Below are positions 29,229 through 32,205 of a DNA stretch of 32,944 bases, piece by piece. Source of the DNA: a virus. Lineage: Duplodnaviria; Heunggongvirae; Uroviricota; Caudoviricetes. The DNA is taken from the IMG/VR virus record IMGVR_UViG_2648501787_000007; one strand, given 5' to 3'. The notes beneath the pieces were generated by a model that was not told the origin of the DNA, did no database searches, and saw only the letters and a list, made by a program, of their open reading frames with translations. Positions within the stretch are counted from its first letter, which is position 1; each line of letters starts with the position of its first letter. The translations under genes and the position numbers were made by a program.

Positions 29229-29296
29229 TTCCTATTGGTATTGCAATGAATGAATAATAGCAATGAGTATTAATCCAAGCAATAGCAAAACGTGTT
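29229..29296. promoter_or_regulatory. Right operator region (OR-like) with three related sites ATTGCAAT / ATAGCAAT / ATAGCAAA between cro-like and cI-like genes
   Basis: Repeats at about 29240, 29257 and 29282; the same CAATAGCAAT core recurs at the OL-like region near 31678 and 31703. Confidence 0.5.
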
Positions 29297-29323
29297 TTGA
29301 CCATCAATACGCAAGCGTATAAA
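29296..29323 (+). promoter_or_regulatory. Promoter for the cI-like gene (-35 TTTGAC/TTGACC, -10 TATAAA), giving a near-leaderless transcript
   Basis: TTTGACCATCAATACGCAAGCGTATAAAT ends about 10 nt before the ATG at 29333, with no Shine-Dalgarno. Confidence 0.45.
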
Positions 29324-29332
29324 TTAAAACTT

Positions 29333-30025
29333 ATGAAAAAAGAAACTCTTGCTGATCGCTTAAACCTAGCGATGGAACAATCTGGAATGTCTCAAGGCGC
29401 TCTTGCAAAGGCGTCTGGCGTAGCTCAACCCACAATCTGGAGACTGACAAGCGGCAACGCGCGCGGCTCAACAAAAATTGTTGAAATAGCTAATGCATTG
29501 GGTGTTCGAACAGAATGGCTCTCATCAGGCATAGGCCCGATGAGAAATGACGGTCAACAATCAGGGAAGCCTGCTGTCAGCCATTCCAAATACTTCAAAA
29601 TTGACGTTCTTGATATAGAAGTCAGTGCCGGGCCGGGAGTCATCAACCGTGAGTTTGTAGAAGTTCTACGCTCGGTTGAGTACTCGTTTGACGATGCTCG
29701 TCACATGTTCGATGGCAGGAAGGCAGAAAATATCCGCATCATTAACGTGCGTGGTGACAGCATGTCAGGAACGATCGAACCAGGTGATCTGCTGTTCGTT
29801 GATATCACGGTTAAATCTTTCGACGGTGATGGTATCTATGCATTTCTGTACGACGACACCGCCCATGTAAAGCGCCTGCAAATGATGAAGGATAAACTGC
29901 TGGTTATCTCTGATAACAAGAGCTACTCACCGTGGGATCCTATCGAGAAAGACGAGATGAACCGGGTGTTTATCTTCGGGAAAGTTATTGGGAGCATGCC
30001 GCAGACCTACAGGAAGCATGGGTAG
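29333..30025 (+). CDS. CI-type prophage repressor (N-terminal HTH plus C-terminal S24 LexA-like autopeptidase)
   Basis: MKKETLADRLNLAMEQSGMSQGALAKASGVAQPTIWRL... HTH, then GDSM (catalytic Ser) and a conserved Lys in HVKRLQ; the ORF track starts at an upstream TTG 29297. Confidence 0.85.
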   Translation: MKKETLADRLNLAMEQSGMSQGALAKASGVAQPTIWRLTSGNARGSTKIVEIANALGVRTEWLSSGIGPMRNDGQQSGKPAVSHSKYFKIDVLDIEVSAGPGVINREFVEVLRSVEYSFDDARHMFDGRKAENIRIINVRGDSMSGTIEPGDLLFVDITVKSFDGDGIYAFLYDDTAHVKRLQMMKDKLLVISDNKSYSPWDPIEKDEMNRVFIFGKVIGSMPQTYRKHG

Positions 30026-30060
30026 GTAGTATGTAAAGAATTACCTTTGGTTGATTTGTA

Positions 30061-30090
30061 ATAGCTACCGATTACGTTATCGGTAGCTAT
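30061..30090 (+). terminator. Perfect 12-bp stem hairpin (ATAGCTACCGAT-TACGTT-ATCGGTAGCTAT) 36 nt after the cI stop; terminator/attenuator or RNA processing site
   Basis: Inverted repeat read directly; followed by AAGAAATTTTTATGTCTTT. Confidence 0.35.
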
Positions 30091-30364
30091 AAGAAATTTT
30101 TATGTCTTTACTGTGTTTATTTATTCAATACTAGTTGGACTATAGCAATGAAAGATAACAGACAAAACTATACTTTTTGGGCAACTGGTTTTATTTGAAA
30201 AAGACAAAAGCCAGTCTCTATTAGAGCTTAGTGATAATGTTAAATTTTATGACATTAACTCCATCACGTCTAATGATATAATTATTGATGGAGATAAACG
30301 TAGTGACAAAAAAAGAGAGTTTGTAGATTCAATTTTATATTTTGGTGTACTAAACAACCATGTC

Positions 30365-30991
30365 ATGATCGTTCAATCCACATCGCTTCGAGCAAGGGAG
30401 CTTGAGGCGCATTTGAATTGGCTAATTAATACATTCACAGATGAAAAAGAATCTGTGTTAATGCTTCAAGATAAGCCATCCGAAGAAACGATGAAAAAAA
30501 TGGAGAAAGCACCAGCCAAGAGCATAAAAATTGGTGGATTACCCATTACTTCAGAAGTTAAAAATTCAGAGAACCAAACACCCTCCTTTTCAAATGGTTC
30601 GGTGAAGACAATAAAATACCGCCCAATAGGGAAAGGAGGTGCGCTACTAAAAGCATTTTTTGGCGATAACTGGGCAAATGATATAAACATTAAAGATTCA
30701 TTAGATGAGGCCAATTTACAAGTAAGCCTCGAGATTACATACTTCAGAAAAACAAATGATAGCGGTCAAGCTGTTATAGACAGTATTGCTACCTCACTAC
30801 GACATCTAGATGAGGATGATATTAGCATCAAACTTCAAGGCGGTGGGGAAATAACGGGAAAAGAGATAAAATTATCCGGAAAAATTAGCGTTGAACATAA
30901 CAATGGCATTATTGATGAAAATGATTTATTCTTAAAAATGCATAAGTGGCTGTTCTCAAAACTTGATGCCGGAGAATTGGTTGCAAAATAA
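30365..30991 (+). CDS. Hypothetical cytoplasmic protein in the rexA position; frame is open upstream to 30152 and may be a frameshifted ~280-aa gene starting at ATG 30148
   Basis: 208-aa ORF MIVQSTSLRARELEAHLNWLINTFTDEKESVLMLQDK...; AT-rich; no Shine-Dalgarno before 30365; 71 stop-free in-frame codons upstream. Confidence 0.5.
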   Translation: MIVQSTSLRARELEAHLNWLINTFTDEKESVLMLQDKPSEETMKKMEKAPAKSIKIGGLPITSEVKNSENQTPSFSNGSVKTIKYRPIGKGGALLKAFFGDNWANDINIKDSLDEANLQVSLEITYFRKTNDSGQAVIDSIATSLRHLDEDDISIKLQGGGEITGKEIKLSGKISVEHNNGIIDENDLFLKMHKWLFSKLDAGELVAK

Positions 30992-31012
30992 CCTACCAAA
31001 AGGAGGGCGATA

Positions 31013-31519
31013 ATGAAATCGAACATCATCCACCTTATTGGTATGTTGGTCTTCTATGTTGCTGGTTACTTTTTGTTCAAGTCAGCATTGGGCTATATTA
31101 CACCGGGTGTTGTCCTAACAGCTCCGTGGGCTGTGGTTGGACTCATGCAATTGCCATTATCATATTGTATACAAGCCATTTTTAAGGCAAATGAGGCCAA
31201 TGACCACTCGTCTTTAACCCCTAGTGAGGTTAGGCGATTAGTGCCAATAGTCAAATCCAAGAGACTGAAATTGGTTTTATTATTAGCTTTCTATGTATTT
31301 TCAACTTTGTTTGTAATCTTGGGGTTAATAGCAAGCACAAATGATCAAGCCCTACTCTTCAGGGTCTTAAAAATTTCAGGTGGATTACTCTTTATTTCTC
31401 TCTATACCAGTGTATTCGTTCATAAAATAATGGTTGAGCTTCAAGAGTTTAAAGCGTTATTAAACCGAAGAGAATCAGAGAAGAAGGAAAGAGAGTCACT
31501 CCTTGATAGATTAAAATGA
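31013..31519 (+). CDS. Hypothetical 4-TM membrane protein in the rexB position
   Basis: 168-aa ORF with four hydrophobic segments and a charged C-terminal tail (RRESEKKERESLLDRLK); strong AGGAGG Shine-Dalgarno; 21 nt after the preceding ORF. Confidence 0.65.
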   Translation: MKSNIIHLIGMLVFYVAGYFLFKSALGYITPGVVLTAPWAVVGLMQLPLSYCIQAIFKANEANDHSSLTPSEVRRLVPIVKSKRLKLVLLLAFYVFSTLFVILGLIASTNDQALLFRVLKISGGLLFISLYTSVFVHKIMVELQEFKALLNRRESEKKERESLLDRLK

Positions 31520-31527
31520 CCCCCCTC

Positions 31528-31554
31528 CCCGGCCGTCGTGCCGGGTTTTCTTTT
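31528..31554 (+). terminator. Intrinsic terminator ending the cI/rex-like operon (CCCGGC-CGTCGT-GCCGGG followed by TTTTCTTTT)
   Basis: GC-rich hairpin plus T-tract 9 nt after the stop of the membrane-protein gene. Confidence 0.7.
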
Positions 31555-31639
31555 GCCTCCCCTCATCACACACCGTTCAAAAAACCACCATGCCCCTGCT
31601 TCAGTTATCGCTATGCGATGCAAGTCACAAAATTAATTC

Positions 31640-31721
31640 TTTTTGCTATCAAACATTTAATATCAAAACACATCAGTCAATAGCAATAAGTATTGATATC
31701 ACCAATAGCAATAGCTATTAT
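31640..31721 (+). promoter_or_regulatory. OL/pL-like region: -35 TTGATA (31693-31698), 17-bp spacer, -10 TATTAT (31716-31721), with CAATAGCAAT operator repeats at about 31678 and 31703 and an inverted TTGCTAT at about 31643
   Basis: Read directly; the operator core is the same as in the OR-like region. Confidence 0.5.
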
Positions 31722-31797
31722 CATCATATCGCAACAACACAACGATACGGCAACCACCTGATTCACCGTTGCGATGACCGCTTAGATCCGTAGCTTG

Positions 31798-31868
31798 AAT
31801 TTCAGCAGGCTCCGGGAAGTGCGAGGGGTGAAGCGGACGCGTGAACGTCGGTGTGACCAGCTGAAATT
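31798..31868 (+). promoter_or_regulatory. Structured RNA element downstream of the pL-like promoter (9-bp closing stem AATTTCAGC/GCTGAAATT enclosing a GC-rich 53-nt core); possible antitermination or terminator element
   Basis: Inverted repeat read directly; internal GACG-CGTGAA-CGTC hairpin; about 75 nt downstream of the -10. Confidence 0.3.
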
Positions 31869-31914
31869 AACTCAACATTTCATACCTCAGTCGCTTCAAC
31901 GAGGCGGCTTAGTT

Positions 31915-32205
31915 ATGACAACCGGCGGCCATCCACCGCCTGAATACGCGCAGAAGTCTTTATATGTTCAGCAGCCCAGCTTACGGGCAGGAGTTTTTAT
32001 GGTTCATCAACATTACGGAACGCAGACCGTTAATCGCGGTGCGGTCATGCCAGGAATGCTGGTCAAACACAAAGATGGTACCTGGACAGCATCAGCTAAT
32101 TTACGCGGACGGCTATATCTGCATCGCGGCATCGAGCGCACTTATACCCGTGATTTGCTCGTGGAAGTTTTTCTCGACGGACGAGGCAACGGCCTGAATC
32201 ACTAA
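31915..32205 (+). CDS. Hypothetical early protein immediately upstream of gam (possible Kil-like host-killing protein)
   Basis: ATG at 31915 preceded by GAGG; MTTGGHPPPEYAQKSLYVQQ...TWTASANLRGRLYLH...; the ORF track starts at TTG 31795 with an Arg-rich extension that crosses the hairpin element; the Kil resemblance is from uncertain recall. Confidence 0.3.
   Translation: MTTGGHPPPEYAQKSLYVQQPSLRAGVFMVHQHYGTQTVNRGAVMPGMLVKHKDGTWTASANLRGRLYLHRGIERTYTRDLLVEVFLDGRGNGLNH

Follow-up and report, generated by a model that had tools for sequence, protein, structure and literature searches.

A 179-bp deletion between short direct repeats as the probable cause of a broken RexA-like gene in a caudoviricete prophage

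The window analysed here is the whole 32,944-nucleotide (nt) stretch of the IMG/VR virus record IMGVR_UViG_2648501787_000007 (Duplodnaviria; Heunggongvirae; Uroviricota; Caudoviricetes), and the gene in question occupies positions 30148–30991, between a cI-like repressor gene and the gene of a small membrane protein. This gene, hereafter A, belongs to a lambda-like Escherichia coli prophage and is RexA-like, with a probable anti-phage role. It is very probably a pseudogene created by a 179-base-pair (bp) deletion between direct repeats, and would represent the now dead sensor half of a RexAB-type cassette, the membrane partner being referred to as B. The lesion is ordinary gene decay. A sequence-only reading of the window had placed an apparent +1 frameshift in a run of five T (T5) and offered pseudogenisation, a homopolymer sequencing error, phase variation and programmed frameshifting as explanations. 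The gene is indeed disrupted, but not in the T5 run, which is present in all 41 intact copies; a 179-bp gap lies upstream of it instead. The parts of the broken gene are the following.

30148–30198, plus strand: 5' remnant of the RexA-like gene, with the authentic start, codons 1–6 (MKDNRQ), 10 out-of-frame codons and TGA
30162–30167, plus strand: deletion junction, a single surviving copy of the direct repeat ACAAAA
30164–30991, plus strand: rest of the RexA-like gene, codons 66–340 and the stop codon, now +1 relative to its own start codon
30174–30178, plus strand: T5 run, wild-type sequence within codons Leu69-Phe70 and not the lesion
30365–30991, plus strand: open reading frame (ORF) of 208 amino acids (aa), residues 133–340, annotated by gene callers in broken copies

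The coordinates given by the sequence-only reading (ATG 30148, TGA 30196–30198, +1 frame 30152–30991, ATG 30365 and T5 30174–30178) are all correct. Translation from the ATG at 30148 gives MKDNRQNYTFWATGFI, i.e. 16 codons that end at the TGA. The +1 frame is closed by a TGA at 30149–30151 and is then open for 279 codons, from 30152 to the stop codon at 30989–30991, and the ORF listing contains no ATG, GTG or TTG in this frame ahead of the ATG at 30365. The 71 stop-free codons 5' of that ATG, which had been judged unlikely to be accidental, have a chance of ~0.003 at the local base composition (38% A, 27% T). This upstream part of the +1 frame is real coding sequence and corresponds to codons 66–132 of the intact gene.

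The deletion becomes apparent from comparison with intact copies. A megablast search with positions 30030–31530 against 5426 complete Escherichia coli genomes found 43 records with the locus, and in 41 of these the entire query aligned as two segments that cover 1680 bases of the record, compared with 1501 of the query. A 101-base query centred on the site revealed 179 extra bases in every one of the 42 records matched. The intact gene at the locus is 1023 bp long and encodes 340 aa without interruption, its product being annotated as hypothetical (WP_000654525, WP_000654526). Such an uninterrupted gene, with at least 99.8% identity and no indel, is carried by 41 of the 43 complete genomes that have the locus, and phage Perceval, an active prophage of strain LF82, also has the longer, intact form.

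In comparison with the intact allele of strain FHI_NMBU_03 (locus L001), the window gene shares the first 20 nt and the last 830 nt with no mismatch, and everything after the junction is 100% identical to that allele. The 20-nt prefix and the 830-nt suffix overlap by 6 nt (ACAAAA). The intact gene contains ACAAAA twice, 179 bp apart and inside an imperfect 10-mer, ACA[G/T]ACAAAA. Two copies of the repeat in the intact gene and one at the junction are what a deletion between short direct repeats typically leaves behind; this deletion would most likely have arisen by replication slippage or by short-homology recombination. The deletion ends 7 bases upstream of the T5 run and takes codons 7–65. 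Since 179 = 3 × 59 + 2 is not a multiple of three, the remainder of the gene, from codon 66 onward, is moved into the +1 frame, and translation from the authentic ATG therefore ends after 16 codons. The missing 179 bp were not found elsewhere in the window.

According to the flanking sequence, the window is a close relative of the intact allele in L001, with 2 differing positions in the 2.8 kb that precede the junction. When the exact 208-aa remnant protein was looked up, two more assemblies with the identical deletion were found, L005 (NCBI assembly GCA_049894145.1) and L010 (Logan assembly of SRR21136876), where the flanks are 99.96–100% identical to the window. We take the deletion to be a real, clonally inherited allele. 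An assembly collapse between short repeats, with no biological gap behind it, is highly improbable. In its favour, the junction 41-mer was found neither in the 5426 complete E. coli genomes nor in the scanned collections of genome, viral and metagenome contigs; however, a 6-bp repeat is far too short for such a collapse, and the same junction was obtained in assemblies of different origin, one from NCBI and one from Logan for a different run, with near-identical flanks. As for the T5 run, the intact gene reads it as CTT TTT GGG (Leu69-Phe70-Gly71), and in the 46-sequence family alignment Phe70 is invariant and Gly71 is at least 90% conserved. The run is identical in L001 and L002 and constant in the 41 intact genomes as well as in 8 of 8 related broken loci, so that the comparison of T4 with T5 across homologous loci, which had been suggested as a check, returns T5 throughout. 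Removal of one T from 30174–30178 does give a 280-aa ORF on paper, as had been pointed out, but the fused MKDNRQNYTF-GQLV... protein never existed, and the ancestral product had 340 aa rather than the ~280 aa, close to RexA size, proposed for it. There is next to no chance that a gene of ~280 aa was split by a single base inserted in the run or by a sequencing error there: comparison with the intact copies, which have T5 and of which 41 complete genomes match without an indel, contradicts it, and the 179-bp gap alone fully explains the frame change.

It is hardly conceivable, too, that a full-length product is made by a programmed +1 frameshift on UUU-U or by phase variation of the T tract. 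In favour of this, UUU UGG is followed by an in-frame UUU, so tRNA-Phe could re-pair in the +1 frame, and other rare broken alleles do vary at short homopolymers (A6→A8, A7→A6, G4→G3 and T4→T3). However, a programmed frameshift is expected to come with a two-frame architecture and a slippery site conserved in homologues, and this layout is not conserved: in >2000 contigs the gene occupies one frame, and the homologues make the protein from a single frame. From the N-terminal domain, any shifted product would also be missing 59 conserved residues. A contingency locus is expected to show a tract length that varies among close relatives, and at this site the tract is invariant among them; five bases are, moreover, short for such a locus. 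As for the 208-aa C-terminal ORF, it is very unlikely to be expressed and independently functional, e.g. as a fragment consisting of the dimerisation domain only. Gene callers annotate it on ~39 contigs, a whole PHROGs family of such fragments exists (phrog_33638), and the region is transcribed in lysogens carrying the intact gene. Nevertheless, the sequence upstream of the ATG at 30365, GGTGTACTAAACAACCATGTC, has no AGGAGG-like Shine-Dalgarno motif near the ATG, the Met at this position is not conserved and is Val in the family consensus, and the product would lack half of a split globular domain. At least five different lesions upstream leave this very ORF behind, a pattern to be expected if it is a by-product. 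The related genomes, in which the sequence-only reading had allowed for a short intact gene from 30365 with an unconserved frame ahead of it, conserve the upstream frame instead. We regard the 208-aa ORF as a probable remnant and not as a gene.

The consequences of the deletion can be judged from the protein family. The intact allele matches the PHROGs profile phrog_3482 over residues 1–338 with E 3e-135; no full-length match to this profile is obtained for the window copy, where codons 7–65 are gone and the rest is frameshifted. Judged by its sequence, the window copy is a pseudogene of the phrog_3482 family and not a functional member. The family includes ~130 full-length relatives of 340–360 aa from Gammaproteobacteria (Enterobacterales, Aeromonas, Pseudomonas, Marinobacter, methanotrophs and others), almost all of which are conserved over their whole length, at identities down to ~40%. 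The deleted part carries 6 of the 29 family-invariant residues (Y11, K12, L23, Q24, R43 and N60). In an AlphaFold2 model built from 46 sequences, with a mean predicted local distance difference test (pLDDT) score of 71 and a predicted template modelling (pTM) score of 0.67, the N-terminal 90 residues have pLDDT 80–92. The segment lost from this confident domain would include most of the strand 2–15, the helix 23–31 and the strands 44–46 and 56–65 (pLDDT 81–92), i.e. 4 of its first 6 secondary-structure elements.

A Foldseek search with the model gives RexA as the only hit at E <0.001, with a probability of 0.99; the match to RdgC is weaker than that to RexA. The predicted fold is of the RexA/RdgC type, comprising a split globular domain together with a beta-sheet dimerisation domain, which makes the intact protein a predicted remote structural relative of lambda RexA. 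The assignment of A to the rexA position, made from the sequence alone, is borne out both by the location of the gene, between the cI-like repressor and the membrane partner, and by this RexA-like predicted fold.

Several observations weigh against the proposed explanation. The deletion rests on its occurrence in three assemblies and not on read pile-ups. The model is of moderate confidence, with its mean pLDDT of 71 and a poorly predicted region at residues 190–255, and it compares with RexA at low global template modelling scores (TM-scores) of 0.28 and 0.33, which could result from a different angle between two hinged domains. No RexA match was found by phmmer against the PDB sequences or with the family profile against the same sequences, and when the family alignment was compared by hhalign with the lambda RexA sequence alone, the probability was 0.2. 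B shows no detectable similarity to RexB. PADLOC holds no model for the family, and neither the A nor the B protein has a meaningful match in Pfam, PADLOC or NCBIfam. The relation to lambda RexA is therefore at the level of the predicted fold only.

The surroundings of the broken gene contain the features listed below.

29256–29304, no strand assigned: operator-like repeat with AATAGCAAT motifs, oR-side copy, between the divergent cro-like and cI-like genes
29333–30025, plus strand: intact cI-like repressor gene with a helix-turn-helix (HTH) domain and an S24 peptidase domain, upstream neighbour on the same strand
30061–30090, plus strand: perfect hairpin with a 12-bp stem and a AGCTACCGAT..ATCGGTAGCT core, located after the repressor stop codon and before the RexA-like gene
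31013–31519, plus strand: intact gene of the membrane partner B, 168 aa, with four hydrophobic segments and a charged C-terminal tail, in the rexB position
31528–31545, plus strand: intrinsic-terminator-like hairpin and T run, ending the repressor-A-B unit
31679–31727, no strand assigned: operator-like repeat, oL/pL-side copy, beyond the terminator and overlapping a promoter-like site

The repressor, A and B lie on the same strand, with a small multi-pass membrane protein as the partner. Homologues of the cI-like repressor are XRE family regulators in L001 and L002, with Pfam HTH_3 and Peptidase_S24 in related contigs. The B gene starts 21 bases downstream of A and has a strong Shine-Dalgarno sequence, AAGGAGG. 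The G+C content of the cassette is 36% versus 51% for the window. The two operator-like sequences form a direct repeat of 49 nt, 73% identical between the copies and rich in AATAGCAAT and AATAGCTATT motifs, and probably represent the operator clusters, oR and oL, that belong to this immunity type; the promoter-like site is TTGATA-17-TATTAT at 31693–31721. The start-codon region of A at 30141–30155 (TATAGCAATGAAAGA) is 87% identical to 29239–29253 (TATTGCAATGAATGA) beside the oR-like repeat, and may be either an operator-like half-site or a product of chance. In the interval from the cassette terminator to the kil-gam-bet-exo genes (31546–31998), no N-like antiterminator gene is annotated or obvious, and nothing is annotated in the corresponding 480 bp of related RefSeq records.

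The hairpin at 30061–30090 has a folding energy of −21.3 kcal/mol (z = −4.6, with 0 of 200 shuffles folding as well), and a T-rich stretch begins a few bases 3' of it. Judging from this arrangement, it may serve as a partial terminator or as an attenuator. A sequence similar to the operator-like motif, AATAGCTA, is present in its arms.

Expression data are available for the intact locus. According to published RNA sequencing of LF82/Perceval grown in lysogeny broth (LB), the values are 78, 27 and 578 fragments per kilobase per million (fpkm) for cI, A and B, respectively, compared with ~5 for neighbouring lytic genes (PMC9928086, S1 table), and B is listed there as a moron, 81-fold above background in the LF82 lysogen. 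These values describe the intact Perceval allele and not the window's strain, where the membrane gene is probably still expressed. The ~20-fold excess of B over A suggests its own promoter or a more stable transcript for B, although no convincing promoter for B was identified. Damping of read-through from the repressor promoter by the hairpin might help to explain why A stays below both cI and B in LF82. In other conditions, the RexA-like gene of this LF82 locus (genes LF82_152-154) is strongly up, with log2 values up to 9.6, which suggests that the two cassette genes are separately regulated. In the window, polarity caused by the premature stop could lower the amount of transcript that reads through from the repressor promoter.

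The pairing of A and B is kept in three other genera, in whose mobile elements the B partners have 170–176 aa with 21–32% identity and the same length and layout.

Aeromonas: island, beside a primase gene
Klebsiella aerogenes: prophage, beside HicAB
Pseudomonas: prophage, beside an S24-type repressor gene

In two of these genera the cassette is located elsewhere in a mobile element. In Klebsiella aerogenes (L015/L016, 3047–5616), it is situated between a Q antiterminator gene and lysis genes and adjoins the HicA/HicB pair.

By analogy with lambda RexAB and with RexABpp of Pseudomonas putida, the 340-aa protein would be a cytoplasmic DNA-binding sensor or activator, and the four-segment membrane protein would be the growth-arresting effector. 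Expressed together from the immunity region in lysogeny, they would abort infection by other phages as a RexAB-type exclusion cassette. For lambda RexAB and for RexABpp, non-specific DNA binding, activation of the partner in the membrane and exclusion of superinfecting phage have been addressed by EMSA, toxicity and plaque assays. The window prophage would have a dead sensor half and an intact membrane half; any exclusion for which both proteins are needed would be lost.

The similarities to lambda RexA/RexB (PDB 8TWQ; PMC11077077) include a two-gene unit directly 3' of a cI-type repressor gene on the same strand, location of the cI-A-B genes between oR-like and oL-like repeats, expression in the lysogen and a small second protein with four hydrophobic segments. 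Likewise, expression of the second gene is much higher than that of the first, which is reminiscent of the separate pLIT promoter of rexB in lambda. The differences, in turn, are the absence of detectable sequence similarity to RexA or RexB, the protein sizes (340 versus 279 aa for A and 168 versus 144 aa for B), the strong hairpin between the repressor gene and A, and the broken state of A in the window. A RexAB-type pair is the most fitting description of the cassette, based on its position, predicted fold, type of partner and lysogenic expression rather than on sequence.

For applying the RexAB-type label to pairs this remote, the best precedent is RexABpp (PP_5643/PP_5644) of the Pseudomonas putida prophage P1, which was shown experimentally to defend against phage, its RexB being a toxic effector activated by RexA (PMC12894663). 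The P1 prophage also encodes a HicAB module, like the Klebsiella copy of the present cassette. PP_5643 is, however, absent from the relatives listed for the family members of E. coli and Pseudomonas, so that a sequence family shared with RexABpp is not evident from these lists. The same locus is present in Perceval, PERCE_43/PERCE_42, at 99.7% identity, where A is intact with 340 aa and B is annotated as transmembrane; Perceval has the full 1023-bp gene and the window is 179 bp shorter. Its A and B are annotated only as hypothetical or transmembrane, without a link to RexA, and a literature search found no paper that mentions these A/B proteins. As for E. coli RdgC (PDB 2OWL), it is a chromosomal, recombination-associated protein that has neither a membrane partner nor a prophage context.

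The window allele is not the only broken one. Near-identical copies have independent lesions in the 5' third of the gene, namely A6→A8 (L008 and L009), G4→G3 (L004), A7→A6 (L006 and L007) and T4→T3 (L003), and the complete genome of E. coli T309.Ta3 (L011) carries an IS3 element inserted at ~nt 410. Together with the 179-bp deletion, this makes at least six independent lesions within the first ~410 bp. The sample of lesions is biased, as only alleles that leave the 208-aa ORF were looked up. The contig counts for the alleles are given below.

Intact 340-aa alleles: at least 1000, 889, 111 and 20 contigs
208-aa remnant, two alleles: 14 and 25 contigs
N-terminal fragment of 118 aa: 22 contigs
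N-terminal fragment of 51 aa: 17 contigs
N-terminal fragment of 143 aa: 10 contigs

Broken copies account for a few percent of all contigs, and this low share fits sporadic decay of an accessory prophage gene. At the loci L003, L004, L006–L009 and L011, the downstream membrane gene is called at full length (168 aa) in every case. In L003, the cI-like repressor gene at 1997–2482 is called at 161 aa versus 230 aa, which may be a second lesion in the immunity region. Fragmentation is also visible in PHROGs: phrog_3482 is full-length, whereas phrog_33638 matches residues 133–340 only and phrog_29708 residues 1–116 only, and the latter two appear to be database artefacts built from fragments of frameshifted phrog_3482 copies.

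A bolder proposal is that the sensor gene is repeatedly and selectively knocked out while its highly expressed membrane partner is kept. If true, hosts or prophages would gain by disarming the suicide trigger while keeping a function that needs the RexB-like protein only. As a separate point, the cassette would be an unrecognised RexAB-type defence in >2000 E. coli contigs. We consider this proposal doubtful; given the biased sampling, selection for loss of the A gene is put forward as a hypothesis.

For annotation, these results mean that the locus should be entered as a pseudogene due to a 179-bp deletion, that it contains no frameshift site and that the 208-aa ORF is not to be called a gene. 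The frameshift question itself is of little interest, while the unannotated RexA-like cassette is modestly so and is the more useful by-product. A prophage pair that is common in E. coli and annotated only as hypothetical shares its predicted fold, its position, the type of partner and expression in the lysogen with lambda RexAB, and natural alleles in which the sensor would be dead and the effector intact provide ready material for testing each half.
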